A DNA stretch of 64,000 bases from contig OX597828.1 in the NCBI GenBank assembly GCA_951406725.2, positions 248,001-312,000 on the forward strand. The letters are read 5' to 3'. The notes under the pieces were generated by a model, which had not been told where the DNA came from, ran no database searches, and worked only from the letters and a program-made list of their open reading frames with translations. Numbering within the stretch: the stretch's first letter is position 1; each line of letters begins with the position of its first letter. The translations under genes and the position numbers were made by a program. Positions 188 to 40,674 of this stretch are shown here, one piece after another. This DNA comes from Octopus vulgaris. Taxonomy: Eukaryota.

Positions 188-314
188 TTTTCTTCTAATT
201 TTTCTAAATTTAATTATTTAATCGTTACAGTTGAAAAGGTCTCAAAATGACCGAAACCGGTACTGAAAGATTCACTATAAAATTATCTTAGCATTTTCTA
301 TTTTTGACTTGTTT

Positions 315-370
<56 letters not shown>

Positions 371-25460: not shown

Positions 25461-25516
25461 AATTCCTTGACAGATCTTCTCAACAAAATGAGCTCCGCCG
25501 ACCCACATTTTATCAG
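25461..25516 (+). CDS. Myosin motor-domain gene, internal exon B (NSLTDLLNKMSSADPHFIR)
   Basis: Pyrimidine tract + cAG acceptor, GTAAAT donor at 25517. 56 nt = 18 codons + 2 nt. Matches the myosin SLxxLxxxxxxxxPHF(I/V)R motif. Confidence 0.95.
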
Positions 25517-26372
25517 GTAAATACAGAGTTCTTTATGTTGTTGTTGTTGCTACTTCATCTTAAACAAAAAATCTGGTGCTTTTTGTTATTGTTGTTGTTT
25601 TTAAACCCCAGGCCAGCCCTAATCTAACAAATGTACAATCAAAGATGTTCCAGCAGTGGATATATCTTCTAGTTTTCATCAGCTATAGTGTATCTAAGAC
25701 TACATTATCTAATTATCTGGAATCAGAGATGTTACATTTGTAACCATCCGGTCTTTTATGATAGGCAAAGTATGCCTCGGACTACATTTTCTAATAGATC
25801 CTTCCTTCTGTGTTGTTTGACCCTATGTCAGCCCTAGTCCAGTTAATCGATGATCAGATATGTCCCAGTCACAACCATCCTGTTCGTCTATGCTAACGAT
25901 TCTGCCAGCTCGCCGCCTTGCATGAGGAAATATTTCAACATCGTAGCTAAACTCTCTTTAAAAGACTCCAGACTAAACCTAGTGAAAAAACAAAACTGAG
26001 CAAAATCCCTCTTCATTTGATAATTCTTTTTAAAATTCAGTCAAATTATACACTTTTCAGAAAAGTTGCCAGAATGAATATATTTATTATTTCAGTAAAA
26101 TATTTCACGAAATGCTAAATAAATTTGACAACGTGTGAACAAAGCGGATATTTCGTCACATGGTAACTTGTATTTCAAGTTAAACAAATAAAAACATTCT
26201 AATAAAATTCCAATAAAATGAATAAGAAGTATAAACAAAATTCTTTCGATTATATTCACTTGCTAATGAATCATTTTTGTTTCTTTTATTCGCGAATTTA
26301 ACTGGGTGGTCCATGGTTAATGCGTTTCGGGACTTGGACGGATCGGGTCATGGCACGCAAAGACGACAGGTG

Positions 26373-26404
<32 letters not shown>

Positions 26405-27038
26405 CAGTCTGTGTGAACACAAACTTATACACACACACACATACACACATACACATACACACATACACACATACATACACACATACATACATACATACAT
26501 AATACATACATACATACATACATACATACATACATACATACACACACGCATACATACATACACACATACACACACACACACATGCATACACACACGCACT
26601 CGCGCACACCCACATATTAAGCCATCCCATAAATATTGCGGTTTTTTCAATTGCGTGAACTAGAAGTCGGAATTGGGTGGAATAAACAATTTGCAACAAC
26701 TTGCTATAAAAGCAGGTAGTAATGTTTACCTTGTACTTATTCTTAGTGTACGTTTTGAAAAGTACAGTTCTATTTCAACAGTTAATTCAAACCTATAATG
26801 GAAGCGACAAAGGAGCATATTCGGCATATTTTGTTTTGGGTTCAATAAAGGCAACAACGCAACGGAAAATGCGAGGAATATTAATTCAGCATATGGGGAT
26901 CGGACAATAAGCGTAAGCCAATGTCAACGGTGGGTTCCAGAAACTCTGTTTGTGTGTGTGTAAAATTCAAGTTATCATCATCTATTAAAATAATGATAAA
27001 GTGGTCAGCAAACATTATTCAAATAAGCAAAATATATA

Positions 27039-27103
27039 TCTATAAATATAAAACTGAGAATATCTGTCTGTCTGCCACGGACAACGCCGGGTATCTCTGC
27101 TAG
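27039..27103 (+). mobile_element. Minimal (65 bp) non-autonomous Helitron-like element
   Basis: A|TCTATAAATATAAAACTGAG...cggacaacgccggg...CTGCTAG|T. Both termini resemble the longer element at 51108-51557. Confidence 0.65.
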
Positions 27104-27287
27104 TATATATATATGTATATGTCAGGGTACGATAAATACCTGTTTGCTTCAAAGAGGTGTTAAAAATCCCCCAAACCACTCATCTCTCATTATATGTAAA
27201 CACACACAGAGAATACAGTGAATATGTCTCTCCGAATTAGTCCTCCTATTTGTAAGATACATAGAGTAAATTACAAATGACAGACAT

Positions 27288-27347
27288 TCTGGTATCAACT
27301 GATTTCGCCTTCTGTGTTGAAGCGACACTTAAGGCTCATCAGCCAGA
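27288..27347 (-). ncRNA. Minimal hammerhead ribozyme motif (left arm of palindrome 27248-27558)
   Basis: Minus strand reads tctgg-CTGATGA-gcctt...aaggc-GAAA-tcagttga-TA-ccaga. Confidence 0.75.
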
Positions 27348-27458
27348 CATAAATTTATACCTGCTCAATAACGTTTGATTGAAAGTCGCGGGGGCCTTCA
27401 GTTGAAAAACGCCAACGGACAGGTAAATACGTTTTTCTGAAATAGTTTATGTAGTAAG

Positions 27459-27518
27459 TCTGGCTGATGAGCCATAAGTGTCGCTTCAACACAGAAGGCG
27501 AAATCAATTGATACCAGA
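27459..27518 (+). ncRNA. Minimal hammerhead ribozyme motif (right arm of palindrome 27248-27558)
   Basis: Stem I tctgg/ccaga, core CTGATGA at 27464-27470, stem II gcc/ggc, GAAA at 27500-27503, palindromic stem III tcaattga. Predicted cleavage after AUA at 27513. Confidence 0.8.
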
Positions 27519-27559
27519 ATGTCTGTTATTTGTATTTCACTCTGTGTATCTTACAAATA

Positions 27560-28080
27560 TCATTTGGATACTATTGGTGGAATATTTTCCACGTGGTGCA
27601 AATAATGTATCGTTCACGGCGGCGTTGCAGAGAATAGAGCTTCAGCTGTTTAAGTCGAGCCCAATAATGAAGACCCATTATGCTATTTATTTTTTGTGAT
27701 TGGTCTTTGTGGTGCTTCGATCCTCTTTATATCTTGTTTTTCGTAGGGGAACCATAATAGGCAGCAGTATTCGAGGTGGGGCCTAGCGAATGTGGAGAAG
27801 AGAAGGATGATGGTTTCATGGTCCCTAGATTAGAAAGTTCTGAGGATCCATGAGTACATTCTGTGGGCTATATCGAATTTTTTTGTTGATGTGCACACTT
27901 CACCTAGGGTTGCTGTCGACAGTTACGCCTAAGTCTCTGATTTAATCCGACGGTACTGTATATGGTTGTTTGAGTGCCCACTCTTCCAAAGTCGATGAAC
28001 TCAAATTTTTCTTCGTTCGACTGCATATTGTTTTTTTTGTGTCCACTGGGTTACTGTGCATAGGTCCGATTGAAACATTG
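27560..28080 (-). mobile_element. CR1/L2-group LINE reverse-transcriptase C-terminal fragment, degraded
   Basis: Minus strand reads IRDLGVTVDS...SWILRTF*SRD...RPHLEYCCLLWFPY...RIEAPQR...YWARLKQLKLYSLQRRRERY, with stops and frameshifts. Confidence 0.85.
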
Positions 28081-28736
28081 TTCGATCACACGGACCAGGT
28101 TTTCTGGTAATGCCCAGAAATTCGGATCCGTGTGTATAGGACGGTCTTCTTTCAGTTTCCGTCTACCGGTTTGATAGACAGAAACTGAAAGAAGACCGGA
28201 TTTCTGGATAATACTAGAAATCCTGGTCTGTGTGTTTCACGTCGGGCTGGAAATACTAATAGGGCACAGAAAGTGTGTCAATAGCCAGCTGGAGGAGGTG
28301 TCCCCACAAGGCTTTGGTGGGGCCGAAGCTATAGAAGACACTCGCCCAAGATGCCACGCAGTGGGATTGAAACAGGAACCGTGTGGTCGGGAAGCAAGCT
28401 TCTTACCACACAGCCAAGTCTGCACGTATAGACTAGGGAAAAAAATTTTTTTTTTCAAAGTTTCAAGTTAGGGAAAGGAAACAACTACAACTAGATTAAG
28501 AATAGGATGCTTCCCTCACATTTTATTGAAAGAAGTTTTAAATTGCTTTTACAAATTCAATTTTTATAAAATGTGCAGGATTTTCAATTGAATGGGAATA
28601 AATGAACATTTTAAAAAATATAACCGTGCAAATGTAACATTCACAAACACCATAGAATCAAACAAACGCACACACACACACGCATACACACATACACACA
28701 TACACATGTATACATATATCATATATGTGTGGGTAC

Positions 28737-28772
<36 letters not shown>

Positions 28773-28836
28773 GGATCCGGGTGTCTGGTTAATACCAGAA
28801 ATCTTGGTCCGTGTGTTTGACGTCAGGCTGGAAATA

Positions 28837-28892
<56 letters not shown>

Positions 28893-29648
28893 GATATGTG
28901 TACAGGGAAGTCTGGCTATTTATTACTTGCAAGCAAATGTGGGTGTACATAGCTTGAATACGCATAGTTTATGTACACATTACTTCATCACTATTCACTA
29001 AATCTTCACTCAAAATCCCACCATCACGATTTCACTCATATCCACACCTACAAAAAATCATAGCGTTACTAATTACGGTTACACCGTACCCGTTATACCG
29101 GCTATTATTAACAACTATACGGGTGGGCGTCGAGATTTACGAAAATCTTACACAAAGTGTACACGTCCATATAAGTACACACACACACGCACACATTCGC
29201 ATATAGGTACTCAAAGCATTCACAAATATAGACACGCATTACTTTCTTTTTCACTTGGCTCGGTCAATTGACTGCGGCCATATTGGGACGCCGCCATTCA
29301 AAATGAAAGTTACATCCTCATTTGGGGGTACAACTTCGAATGTCAGTATTTCTCTCAACTTTTCAATAAAGAACGCAGGCCTTTAAACACGGCCTGCAAG
29401 CCGACCATGCCACCATAGAGCCCACGATTGTAGGTGTATATGCATTCATATATCTTTTATCTTTTATTCAGTCGTTGGAAAGCGGTCATGCTGGTTTTAG
29501 TCGATCGAACTGAGCTCAGGACTTTATTTTTTTAAAATCCGGCGACTTATGCTATCGGTCTCTTTTGCCGAGCCACTAAGTTATGGGGATGCAAACAAAC
29601 CAACATCGGTTGTCAAGCAGTGGTGGGGGACGAATACAGACACAGACA

Positions 29649-29718
<70 letters not shown>

Positions 29719-29723
29719 GCTAG

Positions 29724-29765
<42 letters not shown>

Positions 29766-29795
29766 GTCTGTCTGTCTGTCTGTCTATATATATAC

Positions 29796-29830
<35 letters not shown>

Positions 29831-30050
29831 CGAGGGGTGCTAAAAAGTTTCTGGCCTTTGGGGTGTCACGAAAGACCTGGCTGGAGGCCCAACCTTCCAT
29901 GTTCTTTTACAGGGTTTAGAAAAACTGAAGGACCGCTACAATAAGTGTGTGAATCTGAAAGGGGAATATGTTGAATAAAACCATAATTAACTGATCCGCC
30001 TCTATTTTCTTTTGCCCAAAGCCAGGTACTTTTTAAAACCTACCCCTTTG
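29831..30050 (+). mobile_element. Internally deleted mariner element (MITE)
   Basis: TA-flanked, with TIR-like ends cgaggggtgctaaaaagtttctggc and gccaggtactttttaa..cccctttg. Retains transposase end WLEAQP...GLEKLKDRYNKCVNLKGEYVE*. Confidence 0.8.
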
Positions 30051-30772
30051 TAAATATATATATGATGGACTTTCCCGTCATTAGACTACGTATGTGGGTT
30101 CGACAGTTTCTTACCGAACAACCACACGCACATATATAAAGTCAATTCAAATAAACGAATAATAAAACGGACCAGAAGAGGAATGTATTGGCTGGACGTT
30201 CGGCGAAAAGAGAGAGTTTGATGATTCGAGCATGGCTCTTCGTTGGAAAGGAGAAAGGTAAAAGTCCAAAGAAAGAAAAAGATCGCCAACACCGAGAGAG
30301 AGAGAGAGAGAGAGTAAACTATAGAAAATGGGTCTCCGTCACTTTAGACGCTAAGTGTCCAGGCTTTCGTTCAAACGAATTATTTATTTATAGAATAAAT
30401 ACATGGTGGTTGAAAGCATATGTGTGAGTGTGTACCTTTTAATCGTGGATGCAATTCATACACGCACCGGGTGGTTAAAGCTTCCATCCACCCAGTTTCA
30501 CTGACTAAGCGTGGATCAAAGGAAATCTGTGGAGAAAGTGACTTGCTTGACGTACCGCACTGAGACCGAACGCTGAACCTTGTGACTGCAAAGCAAATTC
30601 TTCAACCATCCGGTCACACAAACTCACACACACACGCCCATACACATAAACGCAATGACACACGCACACACGTCCCCATACAAATACTAAAAGTTAGGTT
30701 TTATGTTCGGTACACTAACCTTAAAAACACATGCATACAAACATCTTCAACCTCTCTCTCTCTCTTTCTCTT

Positions 30773-30829
<57 letters not shown>

Positions 30830-31432
30830 TTATGACTTGCACATAACCACAAATATAAATATAAAGGCCCACATGTACACGCAGTATACCAACATTTTAA
30901 AAAAGAAACCTACACACACACACACGCACACGCATACAAATACCTACACCATAATCCTACGCTTATTAAGAACAGGTAAATATATTCAAATAAATATTCC
31001 CACACACATACACACACTTTCACACAACACCAATGAGAAAGGTTACATACCTACAGTCAAAACAAACACTTGCTAAACAAGCTTACACACACACACACAC
31101 ACAAGCCTACACTCATTAAAGCACATCCAACGCTACTCTCCCACCCCACTTCCACCACTCCCAGATCTCACACCCGGACACATTTCTTTACCCATATAAG
31201 GAAACTCAATGTTTACGTAAAAGGTTCTAAAGTTAAAGAAGTGATTAATTTGCCTTCGACGCTAATCAAGGAGACATCATCACATTCACTTGATCGATTG
31301 GTCATCATTATTCCATCGATATTATAATCATTATTAATAGAATAATTCTATGATTAGTTTGGAACACAGCAACGAGCCATGGTCTTTCCACCGACATCTC
31401 AGCTGGGGTCAGTAATTGAAATTTCTTTATTA

Positions 31433-31470
<38 letters not shown>

Positions 31471-31510
31471 CCCTTCCCCAAAAATTTCAGGCCTCGTACC
31501 TATAGTACAA

Positions 31511-32375
<865 letters not shown>

Positions 32376-33962
32376 GGTATTATGCTTAGGGTGCCATATA
32401 TTTGGTTTTGCACATAGTATTGTTCTAGGGAAATTAGAGCCCAATTTGTTGTCATTACTTTTCTGGGTGCTACTGTGGTTCTAAATGGTTGTTATGGATG
32501 TCCTTGTATTTGTCTCAATTGAGACAAATCCTAATTTCCAAGGGGTCAGCTCCTCTACGCACCTCCTCTTGAGCATACTTCAGGCGAACGAATAAATACA
32601 TCGAACCAAAGCCAAGCCGTAACCAACTCCGACACTTCCCAGACGCGTCGTTATATCAACGTTTCTGCTAATTATTTATCATCGCAGATCCAACTCATCC
32701 ATTATTTTGTAGAAAATATTGATTACAAAATAAGGATCCCAAACTATGTGGTCACCATTTTGAAAACGAAAGCTGATTCGACTTCGATATTCTCGCTGAT
32801 TTGGGCTCTAACACTGAACAGCTAAATTGATCGTTAATGGACTGCGATATCTTAGCCTCTACATTCATCAAATTAAACGATCATATTTAAATCTCTCTCT
32901 CTCTCTCCTTCTCTCCTTCTTTCTCTCACTCTCTCCTTCTTACTCTCTCCTTCTCTCTCACACTCTCTCTGACGGGCTTTTACAGTATCTGTCAACGAAA
33001 TTCACTTCAAAGGCATTGGTCGCGCAGTGGGACTGAACCCGAAACTATGCAGTTGCAAGCATATAGCCTCTGCACACTTGTTAACAACATGAAGGAGGAT
33101 AAGAGAATATTCAATGAAAAAACTCATTAACTTGTATGACCGCCGTCCATCTGGCCGTAGTTGTTGCCACTGTTGTTGTTGTTGTCTCTGTCGTTGATGT
33201 TGTAGTTGCTGTTTAGCCCTCTGCCGGCCTTGATTGAGATCATGTATGACCAAATGCGTTCCACTCGTTACCCTCCTGTGTTTTCATATGTTTACACCCA
33301 AATACGTTCTATACTATTGTAGTTTTAGTGCTACTTGTCTTCCATACTTTTGCATATTTTGGACTTCTTGCTTTTTTTACATTTGTACTACTTGCCTATC
33401 ATACGTTTGTATATTTAGAACTATTTGTGTTTCATACTTTTCGTGACGGTAAGAATGTAATTTGAGGGAAATCGGCTGCTATTTCTTGCAAATCGAATAA
33501 CTACGTAGAAGCTCTCTTGTTGATAATTTTTAACAAACACTAAAGAATTTACTGAAAGCAAATGTTTTGACGCCATTACAGAAGTGAAACGGTGAAATAT
33601 AAGATTCTTCCCAGATTCCTATGAATTCGTCTCCTCCTTCTTTCGTTGAGTTAGGACGTCCACCAGGTCGACCACGAGGACGGCCACACCACAGATCTTG
33701 TGAATATTTACAGAATTTCTGAGTTATGATCTTATCGTTATGTTTTCTAAAACAATCCTTAATAGATACAGTTAGTATAAGATTTAATTTTTAAACATTT
33801 TATGGAGTGGTCGGAGATAAAACCTTTCAGTGTTGATTGAGTTGAAGGTGGTTCTTGTCTCTAAAATTACTTTTATATATTTGAATTAAAAATTGAAAGA
33901 TGTTCATTTTAGTACATCTAATTCGAATGTCTTTTTTCTGTGCACTTGGAAGTAATATTTCC

Positions 33963-34025
<63 letters not shown>

Positions 34026-34027
34026 TA

Positions 34028-34059
<32 letters not shown>

Positions 34060-34101
34060 TATATATATATATATCTATATATGTTTATATGTATATATAT
34101 T

Positions 34102-34165
<64 letters not shown>

Positions 34166-34293
34166 TAAATTAGAGACAAAACCACTATTAGGCAAATCAT
34201 ACAATGAAAAACTTAAGCCAATACATAAGATTATCTAATTTATATTATTTAAATATAAAACAAAATTATTTTAAAAATATATAATTAATATAT

Positions 34294-34357
34294 CACTACG
34301 ATCGTTTCATGGCTGTTAATTTCTTTAAATTTTCGAGTTACAGTCATTCATCAGGTG
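34294..34357 (-). ncRNA. Minimal hammerhead ribozyme motif (left arm)
   Basis: Reverse complement of the motif at 35333-35396. Confidence 0.75.
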
Positions 34358-35332
34358 GTTTAAATATCTAAAATATAATCAATATTTTAAAGATATAAAT
34401 AATATATATAATATAATATAATAATTTAACTTATAATAAACTCTATTATCAAATATGATTATATCGAAATCGACTATAATGTTAAATATTAACTTTAATT
34501 TATAAGGTAGGAAACCCATAATCTAGTATCAATATTAGTCTATATCTAATTACATAAATATTTAAAATGACTAATATATATAAATTATCAATGAAAATAT
34601 ATATAAATATTATAATCAAGATCTAAAATAATCTCTATAAATAATTGTATATAATGAAAACCTAATGAATTTAATTTTTCATATTTAAAGATGAAATAGC
34701 TAATTTCAAAATACAAATAAACTAACTTAAACGGACTTTCAGAAATCTTATGTAAAATACTTTTAGAAATAATCAATTCTTAGTAATATAGTATCGAATA
34801 AATACTATAAGTACTATAAATATAATTATGAATGGGAATTATTATCTAATATACATTTAAAGAAATAACTAAGTTATGCTATTAAATTATACATGGCCTA
34901 GACCAATCTTTAGTCGAAACATATCTAATTTTATCAAAGTTTATTTCTGAAAGTCCGTTTAAGTTAGTTTTTTTTGTATTTTGAAATTAGCTATTTCATC
35001 TTTAAATATGAAAAATTAAATTTATTAGGTTTTCATTATATACAATTATTTATAGAGATTATTTTAGATCTCGATTATAATATTTATATATATTTTCATT
35101 GATAATTTATATATATCAGTCATTTTAAATATTTATGTAATTAGATATAGACTAATATTGATATTAGATTATGGGTTTCCTACCTTATAAATTAAAGTTA
35201 ATATTTAACATTATAGTCGATTTCGATATAATCATATTTGATAATAGAGTTTATTATAAGTAAAATTATTATATTATATTATATATATTATTTATATCTT
35301 AAAAATATTGATTATATTTTAGATATTTAAAC

Positions 35333-35396
35333 CACCTGATGAATGACTGTAACTCGAAAATTTAAAGAAATTAACAGCCATGAAACGATCGTAGTG
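35333..35396 (+). ncRNA. Minimal hammerhead ribozyme motif (right arm)
   Basis: cac-CTGATGA-atgactgt...acagccat-GAAAC-gatc-GTA-gtg. Stem I cac/gtg, stem II 7 of 8 bp paired, stem III C-GATC-G with a palindromic tetraloop. Predicted cleavage after GUA at 35393. Confidence 0.8.
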
Positions 35397-35605
35397 ATAT
35401 ATTAATTATATTTTTTTAATAATTTTGTTTTATATTTAAATAATATAAATTAGATAATCTTATGTATTGGCTTAAGTTTTTCATTGTATGATTTGCCTAA
35501 TAGTGGTTTTGTCTCTAATTTAATATAATATAATATTTTACTATAAAATTGGATTCAATCCTAAATCTGCTTTTTCCCTGTAAGTTTGGATTTATTCCTA
35601 ATATT

Positions 35606-35702
<97 letters not shown>

Positions 35703-37769
35703 AGAGAGAGAGAGAGTAAGAGAGAGAGAGAGTTAGGTATTATCGTTTAATTCGATGAATGTAGAGGCTAAAATCCCAATCCATTAACGATCAATTTAGC
35801 TGTTCAGGGTTAGTCTAATCAATGGAAATATCGACGTCGAATCAGCTTTCATTTTCAAAATGGTGACCACATAGTTTGGGATCCTTATTTTGTAATTCAT
35901 ATTTTCTACAATGTCCTTCAGACATGTGAGGGAAACCTTTGTTAGGAGAAACAAGATTATTCTTCACAAAGAAGTCCAGTTTTTGGAGGGTTATGTTGAA
36001 TTAGTGGCTGGTATTCATGCTCAACAACAAAACATTCTCAGTTTTGTGGGTGGGGAGTTTTCATTTTCACTGTTATTGTTGGTGTTGTTGTTGTTGCTGT
36101 ATTCAAATGTATTTAAATGGCAGGGATAAAAATAACATTTTACAGTAATATTTTGCGCATTTCGTTCACAATTAGGGGGAATTTCATTTACATTAATTAA
36201 ACGATGCCTCCTAAAACAACAAACTGGGTCTTTTATATGCAGATTATTTTGGTGTCTTTCTTTTCAATCGTTTCGATTCTGAGTCACATGAAAAACAGGA
36301 GTAAAAACAATGCAGAAAAGAGAAAGTATTTAGACGTGGGAAATTTCTGCGGAAGATCTGGATAATTTGCATGTTTCCGTTTACTGACATGTTTGTTTTG
36401 TTTTCTATTTTTTTTCTTCTTCCAAAAAAAAAAAAAATAGAAGACTTAATGTCACCGTAGCCTAAGTCTAAGACAATGAAGGGAGTTTATATGTGGTTAC
36501 TGACCTACCAGGAATAATACTCGAATTTCCTCAAACCACACCATACTGTCTTCGAAAATAAAAGAGAATACAATAAAACACGTCCTAGATATGTAAAAAG
36601 TCAGGGTGGTCACAATCGGAACGATTTGATCATAGGCTTGTTTTTTGCTTGGTCAGGATTAACTTGGATTAACAGCTAAAATATTCAAATAAGAAAGCGG
36701 GGATTTTATTTGTGCTTTTTTATTGTTTTTTGGTTTCTGCGCACTATTTTTATTATTTTTTTATGTATGATCTTCTTTGTTTATAAATAAATTTTTGAAT
36801 TTCGAGACTAAGTGGCGTAGGAAAATTACTAAGGTGGCGGTGCATGTGCCTTGCCTTAATTGCGTTAATTGTTTCAGTTGTAGAGTTCAAATTACACCAT
36901 GTTCAAATTCCGTGTTCGACCTTGGGCTTCCTACTTTAAGGGGTTTTATAAAATACACCGTTATAAAAACAGAGCCACCAGTTGTGACCTTTCTCTGTCT
37001 CTTCTACTCTTACTACACCCATTAGTCTTACCCACACTTTTATGTCTTCTCTTACCACAAGTACAAATTATATCCTCCCTCTCTCTCTCTCTCTCTCTCT
37101 TCTACTCTTACTACATCCATCAGTTATATTCTCTTGCTATTCTTATTCTTACCACAATTACCAATTGTGATCTCCTTCTATCCCTTCTCCTCTTACTACA
37201 ACCACCAGTTGTGTTCTCTTTGTGACACTTCTTCAATCATCAGATAACAATGTTGTCACTCGATCGGCCAAAAGTGACAACTAAAATCTTCAATTCATAC
37301 GCTGTTGTCTTTAAAAAGAAAAACAATACACAATGTAGTTCATAGAATCTGTTATATTATGGCTAACCTGTGGCTACAAACATTAGCAACAGCAAGGAAA
37401 GACATATCAGATAATGTAGTTGTTGATAGACTATGTTTAAATAAAGATGGGGTGGTCACAGCTGGATGTCTTTGATCACAGGCTTGTTGGATCATGGGTG
37501 ATCTATAGATAAAGGTTATTTCATATTGATGCTGGAAGACAGAAGGAAATTTTTATATTTATTTTTATATTCTAGAGAGGAGATAATCCAAATAACCGGC
37601 AATTAATTGGTGTGAATGGCCACCAGGGCAGATTTACGCAAAACTGAAAGGTTTTAAGGATCATGCATTTCTAAATACATAGAAATAGTGAGAGAGAAGT
37701 GAAAATCTACACAGGAGTGTAGATTAAATTGTCCAGTGGGCGGCAACCTAACTTTGAAGACGACAGGAA

Positions 37770-38000
37770 AAAAAAAGAAAAATTATGTACCGAACTCTTA
37801 AAAAACCTGAACTATACTTTAGATTTATACCTGTAATTATTGAGATATTTGCTCGCTTAACTACCTGTCTCAGCACCGAAGTTGAAAAGCTAGGCTTCAT
37901 AGAATCAGTAAAGATAAAGATAGTTGGAAATTTCCAATAGAACATTTTTGGAACTGTAAAAATAGGCGAAACATTCTGGAACGTTAGCCTATAGTATATA
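37770..38000 (+). mobile_element. Degraded RLE-type LINE 3' fragment
   Basis: FRFIPVII-like segment, homologous to 39300-39520. Confidence 0.5.
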
Positions 38001-38235
38001 CACACACACACACCTATAGACACGTAAGCACATGCGTATTTCGATGGGTTTTTTTACATATGTACGTACGTACGTATGTAAGTATGTATGTATGTACTAT
38101 GTAAGTACGTATGTATCTATGTATGCATGTACGTATGTATGTACGTATGTATGTATGTATTTATGTATGTATGCATTAGGTGGAGGAATACAGCAACACA
38201 CTCAGTACACAAGTGTTTACCATAAAAATGCCTTT

Positions 38236-38332
<97 letters not shown>

Positions 38333-39029
38333 GATAGATAGATAGATAGGTAAGTAGGTAAATAAATAGATAGACAGATGTAGAGAGAGAAAGAGAGTGA
38401 GAGAGATAGGGGGAAGGAGAGGAATATCAGCAGATAAGCATAAATTGCACAAATAGTTAATTCATTTAATTTATTTCTGAACTGCATGTGAGATTTATGC
38501 CTTTTTGTTCTTTATTCTAAACATGTTGCTCTCAGCGATCGTCTTAGCCGATACTGTATTTACCAGTAAACATGTTCCACAAGAGATTATGATGTTGTGA
38601 GAACGTATTGGAGCTTAACAATGTGTCAATAACTGAGCTCTTAACTGCTGTGGATTTAATTTGTGGTGCCAATTCTTCAAAGATGTCACATACAAATGTT
38701 TGTGCATAAATGTGTGCATGTATGTATAAACATACGCGCATACATACTAGCATGCATGTATCCAGCCATCATACCTACACAAATAAGAAAAATACGTTTT
38801 CTTGGTAAACACTTGTTTCCTGATGGTGTTGCTGTATTCCATCTCGAAATGCAAACATACGTAAATACGTACATACATACATACGCACACACCTTAACAT
38901 GTACATACACACATACACACACACACACTTACATACATACATAATACATACATGCATATGTAGGCAAAACATGGAAACGAGCTAACCGATGCTGACTTTT
39001 AACGCCATAGATATCAACCGCATTATAGG

Positions 39030-39520
39030 AATTGTCATCACTTTATTATTTGCCGATGAGACATGATGCTGTGGCCAAGACACCTTACAATGAGATCTGT
39101 CGGGACAATACACAGATGTAAAAATCCCCCATGTGGTTGGGACCACAGCTATGATGATGAGAAGAAGTATTGGTGGAATGTCCCATTGAAAAGATCAATA
39201 AAATGCAAACCTAGAAGACAGGAGGGAAAGTAGTGGAAGTTAATTTCCCAGAGGATGTCAACACAAAGCTATAAATCACTGAAAAAGTAAAACACTACAC
39301 TGAACTATAAAGAAATTCACGGTTGTTTCAGCCGGATTACAACCTCAAATTTATACCTGTAATTATAGGTGCCCCAGGGTATCTAACAGACAGCCTCAGT
39401 ACCAGTCTTGTGAATTCAGGCTTCTCTAAACCAGAAAGGAGGAAACTAATTAGATTACAGACACAAACTGTTATTTGAACAATCAAAAGTTATAAAATAT
39501 TCCAAAAGTTTAGCATATAG
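39030..39520 (+). mobile_element. Degraded RLE-type (R4-like) LINE 3' fragment
   Basis: Remnants RHDAVAKT.YN, YWWNVPI and KFIPVIIGAPGY, with frameshifts. Confidence 0.65.
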
Positions 39521-40158
39521 GTGCATATGTGCATATGTCTAAACATGTGACATTGTGTATGAGTTTACACACACAAAACATGCAAATCTGCAGATGTAGT
39601 GAGGCTATATACTTGCAAGAACGCTCCAAGACAAGCAGAAATACTTCGTTGGTGTTATTGAAATTTCAGTAAAGGTGTCTTGGATCCTGGCTAGGAACCG
39701 ACACTTTCTCCAATGAGAAGAAATACAGAATCAAAATTAAATAACAAACAAAAATACATACATACATACATACACACACACATACATACATACATACATA
39801 CATACATACATACATACATACATACATACATACATACATACGTACGTACGTACGTACGTACGTACATACATACATACATACATACATACATACATACATA
39901 CATACATACATACATACATACATACATACATACATACATACAATCAGCATCTGGCTGATTTGTAAATTCAAATGAAAGAACCTTCCTTCGAAATTGCAGA
40001 CCGGTTTTGTTTCTTCAGTGAGAAATTTGAAAAATTAGGTTAGCATAAGTGATACATTTGCATACACATGCACACTCACGAGTACACACAATACGTACAC
40101 ATACACATGCAACATACACACACATACAAACACACACACACAGAGATATGTATGTAAG

Positions 40159-40197
<39 letters not shown>

Positions 40198-40220
40198 ATG
40201 TGTATATATATATATATATA

Positions 40221-40309
<89 letters not shown>

Positions 40310-40524
40310 TTCTTGTAAGTTGTTGTTATAATAATAATAATAATAATAAAACAATAATTTCATTAATTTGCCACAAGGGCATCAATGAGTGAGACAATAC
40401 TAATGCATTTTTCATCCACTGCACTTATTAATTAGTGTAAATAATATAATATCCAGTTTTTATTTTTCACATTAAGTACTCCGTGTCTTCTATACTGTTC
40501 TTTATTGTTTCTTGTTGCTTGCAG

Positions 40525-40674
40525 GTGTATTAAACCGAACGAAGAGAAAACTCCAAATAAGTTCGAAACTGATCATGTCCTAGACCAACTGCGAACCAGT
40601 GGACTTATGGAAATTGCCAGAATCAGACAACTGGGTTTCCCAGTACGAATTGGCTTCCAAGAATTCATAGACAA
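40525..40674 (+). CDS. Myosin motor-domain gene, internal exon C (RCIKPN...QLRTSGLMEIARIRQLGFPVR...FIDK)
   Basis: Acceptor ttgcAG, donor GTAAGT at 40675. 150 nt, phase 2 on both sides. Contains the diagnostic RCIKPN motif and the QLRxxG..E..RI...GFP.R (SH2/SH1 helix) motif. Confidence 0.97.

Follow-up and report, generated by a model that had tools for sequence, protein, structure and literature searches.

A palindrome with a hammerhead ribozyme in each arm in an Octopus vulgaris myosin intron: a probable head-to-head insertion of a short repeat by Penelope-like enzymes

Does a palindrome carrying a hammerhead ribozyme in each of its arms regulate the myosin gene in whose intron it lies, or is it a by-product of the process by which it was inserted? 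The question is raised by a locus in the stretch of DNA analysed here, 64 kb in length and referred to as the window, for which a first-pass annotation had proposed that the upstream antisense arm pairs with the ribozyme in the host transcript and locks it, a built-in switch, perhaps modulated by A-to-I editing, that could explain how such inserts are tolerated in introns. The host setting given there is borne out, as Myosin_head matches are found on the + strand both upstream and downstream of the insert and the exons at 25461-25516 and 40525-40674 join in frame as PHFIR-CIKPN, making the + copy sense to the myosin pre-mRNA. The myosin motor domain alone covers about 89 kb (G000:C15:199900-288675), the introns that separate the identified exons being 9-36 kb long. 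The features of the locus are as follows.

25461..25516, + strand: upstream myosin motor-domain exon, NSLTDLLNKMSSADPHFI-R, phase 2, joining the next exon in frame
25517..40524, + strand: putative host intron of 15,008 nt, GT..AG, deduced from the in-frame join in the sequence
26640..26942, + strand: truncated transposase start, presumably mariner-like, flanking the left end of the insert
26962..27037, - strand: 3' 'tail' of the left copy, unit +227 to about +302, which stops at a (CA)n run and represents the long 3' end of the family
27038..27120, no strand assigned: later insertion of an unrelated high-copy short repeat, of very high depth, splitting the left copy at the TA-rich short-end site
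27121..27351, - strand: left copy, spanning unit -9 to +223, with its 5' truncation point a little upstream of the ribozyme and including the left arm (27247-27351)
27288..27347, - strand: type I hammerhead of the left copy, predicted cut after 27293, imperfect stem III palindrome
27352..27559, + strand: right copy, unit -114 to about +97, its 3' end cut off
27459..27518, + strand: myosin-sense type I hammerhead carried by the right copy, with its core C at 27464 and a predicted cut after 27513
27560..28050, - strand: decayed RT fragment, presumably LINE-like, cut mid-frame at the right-copy junction and resembling a frame in locus L149
40525..40674, + strand: downstream myosin motor-domain exon, CIKPN..., Pfam Myosin_head E 5e-14

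The flanking elements are named from their motifs, an N-terminal one for what we take to be the mariner-like start and several, together with the likeness to the L149 frame, for what we take to be the LINE-like fragment. As the flanks are two different truncated elements, a target-site duplication is unreadable at the insert. Beyond its right flank, 28082-28261 and 28764-28842 are copies of another short, internally palindromic repeat, with high depth in all four sequencing runs.

The inverted arms of about 100 bp that had been noted, each with a hammerhead core, are confirmed as 105 nt each (27247-27351 and 27455-27559), 93% complementary and separated by a 103-nt spacer, and they fold into a hairpin with a predicted energy of -192 kcal/mol (z -24). 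A hammerhead descriptor run over the 64-kb window returned exactly two matches, one per arm, compared with a mean of 0.025 matches in block-shuffled windows, where 1 of 40 shuffles gave one match. In both, three helices surround a core of CUGANGA, GAAA and UH, and stem I is the open one, the arrangement of a type I hammerhead. The + core has its C at 27464, an AUA cleavage triplet and a predicted cut after 27513, while the - core lies at 27342 with a predicted cut after 27293, the opposite-strand cores being 122 nt apart, core to core. The self-complementary stem III ascribed to both arms holds without change for the right arm, a perfect 10-nt palindrome, and in the left arm one G replaces A. 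An Rfam scan run at the gathering score returned no family. An assembly artefact is an unlikely source of the inversion, as it is bridged by a contig of run X2 (27300-27467; possibly the assembly's own sample) with 0 differences and the right junction by a contig of run X3 (27477-27601; another organism label and study) with 1 difference.

The insert is not the compact 310-bp unit first described, family sequence spanning about 26962-27559. With the unit numbered from the core C as 0, the left copy on the - strand runs from -9 to +223 and then, past an 83-bp unrelated repeat, from +227 to about +302, where it stops at a (CA)n run, having the long 3' end of the family. The right copy, on the + strand, runs from -114 to about +97, and the spacer, 27352-27454, is the upstream sequence of the right copy itself. 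The two copies meet at their 5'-truncated ends, which is to say head-to-head. The 3' end of the right copy falls at a non-family position, and hence cannot be classed as long or short, and abuts the LINE-like frame, which is cut mid-sequence; this, with another element at the left flank, suggests a deletion of about 130 bp. The compact appearance of the ~100-bp arms is, on this anatomy, likely to be secondary, following the later deletion.

The 83-bp repeat at 27038-27120, very high in copy number, has at its end a GC-rich stretch and CTAG within a run of TA, features that suggest a Helitron-like element. A conserved motif at 27444-27459, just 5' of stem I, allows two splicing readings, one as a donor through GTAAGT and the other as an acceptor, being U-rich with TAG, and the left copy begins close to this point of the unit; in the Penelope element of Drosophila, an intron ends at helix I. 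The 5' start of the right copy (27350-27352; unit -114, equivalent to +308 on a circular unit) coincides with the family's long 3' end, and a few other fragments (L075, L044, L106) start at -109 to -115.

Related copies were collected from the 2.8-Gb genome (227 contigs) in four similarity searches with arm, spacer and left-flank queries, the matches being merged into at least 52 independent loci; since loci were picked by similarity and taken with 1.5 kb on each side only, which misses distant partners, the locus counts below are biased lower bounds. All three kinds of query match one repeat family, an ORF-less repeat with a unit period of about 420-430 nt (~425 nt): at L006 two cores lie 422 nt apart within 1.6 units, and at L020 the period is about 426. 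Eleven fragments at 10 loci run from a preceding unit through the ribozyme, extending up to 1.6 units, and no complete dimer or longer array was found among the sampled loci. No description of the family was found in the literature, and repeat libraries and preprint supplements may already list it.

The ends of the copies are not randomly placed. 3' ends cluster at two sites about 80 nt apart, with 40 of 99 fragments ending at +220..240, where some ends at +233..239 are set by the end of the reference copy, and 20 at +290..322. A microsatellite adjoins 45 of the 60 preferred 3' ends, compared with 5 of the 39 other 3' ends and 13 of the 99 5' ends. Adjacent head-to-head pairs are present at 21 of 52 sampled loci and tail-to-tail pairs at none, the former count remaining 21 when six more loci are added (21/58). 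A long end is combined with a short end in 12 of the 15 pairs that can be classified at both ends (p 0.017), six pairs with one cut end having been set aside. Arm-to-arm divergence was obtained for 16 pairs with at least 50 aligned bases, of which the window pair is the least diverged, the 15 others differing by 10-22%.

Combined, the insert and the family show what is expected of insertion by EN+ Penelope-like elements (PLEs), namely an inverted, 5'-truncated head-to-head copy, two 3' ends with a tail on one arm, and AT-rich or microsatellite targets. The family also has, as non-LTR retrozymes do, a unit that lacks an ORF, measures a few hundred bases, holds a single type I hammerhead and shows a period in tandem. 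An RT and a GIY-YIG ORF, which would mark an autonomous PLE, are absent from the insert and the adjoining sampled copies, and tblastn of the merged loci revealed no PLE RT or endonuclease remnant adjoining any family copy. Among the 30 of 148 GIY-YIG matches that were examined for an autonomous partner, none ends in the family repeat; one of these loci (L044) holds a family copy in antisense, and tblastn of the frames from the GIY-YIG loci against the family loci gave only unrelated repeats and one RT match (L087), about 1 kb from the copy and on the opposite strand. With no partner found among the sampled matches, the argument for PLE mobilisation, which we regard as likely, is drawn from the anatomy of the insertions.

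This anatomy has close counterparts in the parts of published reports with which it was compared. An inverted 5'-truncated copy, a tail and a microsatellite bias are described for PLEs by Craig et al. 2021 (PMC8557442), and Arkhipova et al. 2013 (PMC3846280) give the head-to-head arrangement as usual and propose self-priming on an antisense template. EN+ PLEs in those two accounts share with the present family heavy 5' truncation, partial tandems, an adjacent head-to-head inverted copy, a tail on one end only, microsatellite bias and a hammerhead in the repeat, but differ in having a period of about 3 kb and a tail of 30-40 bp, compared with about 425 nt, about 80 nt and no ORF found here. Two internal RT start sites, with both strands cleaved and extended, are reported by Frangieh et al. 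2024 (PMC11167929) for the Poseidon element PAc of Anolis, in which, as here, two sites 3' of the hammerhead set the tail and targets are AT-rich; the in vitro cleavage and extension are those of PAc, which is autonomous, with sites about 111-118 nt into the ORF, whereas the ends here lie about 228 and 305 nt after the core. For the window's family, two-strand priming is favoured over self-priming on an antisense template (PMC3846280).

The ribozymes resemble the minimal hammerheads of PLEs (PMC4209133, in the portions compared) in their type I fold, 5-bp stem I, long stem II, palindromic stem III and occurrence as an opposite-strand pair, and differ in the longer stem III of the window (10-nt palindrome, 3 bp plus tetraloop) and in having no extra base between positions 9 and 10.1. 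Dual opposite-strand hammerheads 100-700 bp apart in Schistosoma are part of the account of Cervera and de la Pena 2014 (PMC4209133), who also report low activity. Metazoan non-LTR retrozymes, as far as the compared parts of two sources go (PMC7229834; 10.64898/2026.07.22.740005), likewise have low-GC units that lack an ORF, measure a few hundred bases and hold one type I hammerhead, and they share dispersed monomers with partial dimers and a proposed dependence on PLEs; by comparison, no full dimer or array of the present family was found among the sampled loci, and the same parts describe no tails or inverted partners for retrozymes.

We therefore consider it very probable that the palindrome represents an insertion now in decay, in which two 5'-truncated copies of a ~425-nt hammerhead repeat without an ORF stand head-to-head; both were likely placed in one event by PLE enzymes, and their ribozymes are predicted to be locked and likely inert. 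A series of steps that would produce it can be proposed. The family RNA would be a circle or multimer processed by dimeric hammerhead cleavage, and a PLE endonuclease would nick both strands at AT-rich or microsatellite DNA, each 3' end then serving as primer for reverse transcription, from the long site (about +305) in one case and from the short site (about +228) in the other. Both cDNAs would stop early, here past the ribozyme in each case, and be joined at their 5'-truncated ends. The right copy would later have lost about 130 bp in a deletion that also took part of the LINE next to it, and the left copy would have received the insertion of a short repeat, leaving arms of ~100 bp. In the myosin pre-mRNA the arms would form a duplex of ~105 bp, a likely ADAR substrate, with no regulatory role. 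That the template was specifically a circular-RNA retrozyme, inserted by PLE enzymes priming from both nicked strands at two fixed sites of the circle, is a more tentative proposal, plausible and falling just short of probable.

Two other origins for the palindrome have to be weighed. The copies might derive, as terminal (pLTR) stubs, from a PLE that is autonomous and has its ORF-bearing copies outside the sample, a reading that matches in all its insertion features the published autonomous PLEs, that draws on a locus of a second hammerhead family (L149, below) in which an RT-like and an endonuclease-like frame lie between inverted arms, and that is left room by searches covering the best 40 scored candidates. 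Upstream of the ribozyme, however, the region in the sampled copies is always the 3' part of a previous unit, with a period of about 420-430 nt, and never an ORF; we therefore regard pLTR stubs as unlikely, and under them neither the insertion mechanism nor the verdict on the locus would change. The compact palindromic look, on the other hand, might suggest a MITE-like element, a DNA transposon whose terminal inverted repeats would be ~100 bp long, or else a fold-back duplication that arose locally once insertion had taken place, and the arms are indeed more alike (93%) than either is to any other copy (84%). Against this, family sequence continues for about 200 bp past the left arm and also makes up the spacer, all 21 pairs are head-to-head, with a long/short end rule among those classifiable, arm extents differ in every pair, and no second copy with the boundaries 27247 and 27559 was found, so that an origin of either kind is extremely improbable. 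As a candidate class, MITE was rejected, fixed shared terminal inverted repeats with a target-site duplication not being found and arm extents varying by pair. Gene conversion between the two window arms may have taken place: sites private to them are mostly arm-specific, at about 6/104 per arm compared with 6/103 and 10/126 in the unpaired parts, and no other sampled copy has their loop II within one mismatch.

The status of the ribozymes themselves bears on the proposed switch. Their initial assignment as PLE-type, type I hammerheads with a palindromic stem III is upheld by the descriptor and by stems that covary among genomic copies, stem III being perfect in the right arm. In 38 aligned copies, 89.6% of 683 cells pair, compared with 35-43% when the alignment is slid, and changes on both sides are found in stem I pairs 5:65 and 8:62 and stem II pairs 19:44 and 29:35; covariation amounts overall to 41 cells in 5 pairs of stems I and II, a count of sequences and not of events, uncorrected for relatedness, and two covariation measures that count pairs or types did not beat shuffles (391/500, 488/500). 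Stem III pairs do not vary informatively. The covariation of stems I and II across copies indicates that the ribozyme fold is real, as judged from the aligned sequences, and as the covarying changes separate subfamilies, selection would have acted on the source elements. Individual genomic cores, in contrast, look neutral, decaying at about the background rate. Core positions depart from the majority at 29 of 476 cells (6.1%), similar to half the arm-to-arm divergence of the other pairs, non-core columns depart at 16.3% with subfamily differences included, and cores are intact in 21 of 40 copies compared with 19 expected under random decay. Stem III is of the short palindromic, dimer-favouring kind, with predicted homoduplex energies of -9.0 kcal/mol (right) and -6.0 kcal/mol (left), and the predicted probability of the hammerhead fold in the monomer, without the opposing arm, is 0.002 (~0.2%) for the right and 1e-5 for the left.

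The lock itself, as an energetic prediction, stands: in a read-through transcript the duplex is predicted at -192 kcal/mol compared with -110 kcal/mol when the hammerhead is enforced, a gap of 82 kcal/mol, and on this model the window ribozymes are likely to be locked in the hairpin and inert. What does not follow is that the host has retained the pair as a ribozyme/anti-ribozyme switch and, by tuning it through A-to-I editing, tolerates or regulates the cutting of its myosin pre-mRNA. In favour of such a switch, the predicted lock is thermodynamically real, the window pair is the only one of 21 sampled family pairs with both cores intact, and the insert is present under two organism labels. 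However, two intact cores would arise by chance in 44% of pairs at the divergence, and hence age, of the window pair, and the head-to-head geometry is shared across the family, the part of the unit involved being arbitrary. As this geometry places an antisense arm first on either strand, the lock needs no selection. An antisense arm lies over the ribozyme at only 1 of 21 loci with an intact core, the intron and sense status of the loci not being distinguished in this count; with 20 of 21 such loci lacking the arm, a lock is not needed for persistence in the genome, and a built-in or selected switch is unsupported. The predicted monomer fold is in any case improbable, and low or no activity is reported for such ribozymes in the parts of two studies compared (PMC4209133; one of nine dimers active in 10.64898/2026.07.22.740005).

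Modulation by editing fares no better. When A-to-G editing of 20%, 50% or all of the non-core A's of the arms is simulated, gaps of 79, 74 and 60 kcal/mol remain, G being an imperfect proxy for inosine that overstates the stability of I-U pairs. Six A's of the core and cleavage site lie inside the duplex, and editing there would, in this model, more likely destroy the ribozyme. Run X1, which we guess to be RNA, has contigs at 27082-27268 and 27509-28288 with no A>G changes in the parts of the arms covered, contigs being prone to drop rare variants; the second begins 5 nt upstream of the predicted cut, and the gap between the two is uninformative. Apart from the X1 contigs, which weigh on neither side, these results make a retained, editing-tuned switch very unlikely. 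No description of a ribozyme/antisense switch in PLE palindromes was found in the literature; a ribozyme switch kept by selection and controlled by editing would represent a novel type of regulation, to which nothing here points.

Opposite-strand hammerhead pairs and inverted 5'-truncated PLE copies are both already published, and the layout is a known, and in this genome common, by-product of PLE activity. As a described insertion pattern that is common in the genome, the single locus matters little; the residual interest lies in a retrozyme-like unit that inserts with the full PLE signature. The family forms a tidy natural data set on how PLE tandem and inverted structures arise and on the use of PLE machinery by retrozymes via circular RNA. 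If the circular-retrozyme reading is true, the insertions themselves would be direct evidence for retrozymes parasitising PLEs by way of a circular template, a parasitism that has so far been argued from co-occurrence and pLTR homology. Palindromes of this type are, in addition, likely to give rise to long double-stranded RNA from introns.

Another hammerhead family, unrelated to the first and present in L039, has at least 649 copies that match a 20-base pattern exactly. Among the first 100 matches listed, 12 pairs lie head-to-head within 1 kb and no close pair is arranged otherwise; 5 of the 12 have a core in each arm, one of these with a truncated stem I. Its members (L123:330-910; G000:C1:183.008 Mb) have a 59-nt stem II and a CGAUCG stem III and are often near-perfect head-to-head palindromes, and the family looks younger than that of the window. 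At L149, 701-bp inverted arms surround RT-like and endonuclease-like frames. This 5'-truncated second-family element (L149:1249-4747), which we take to be PLE-like from its motifs and from an Atlas lead (PF26215 on 39% of cluster members), gave no Pfam family for three of its frames and carries an asparagine-rich stretch between the RT-like and endonuclease-like frames. The stretch recalls the N-rich inserts described in the compared part of PMC3846280.

An abundant PLE family (L037, L042 and relatives) has 781-aa open frames with RT and C-terminal GIY-YIG at many loci, and the descriptor found no sense hammerhead within 1.5 kb downstream of them. Several unrelated hammerhead-like motifs with a 6-nt palindromic stem III are present in the flanks of L003, L008, L009, L016 and L026, and their occurrence in random flanks suggests that the genome is rich in such families.
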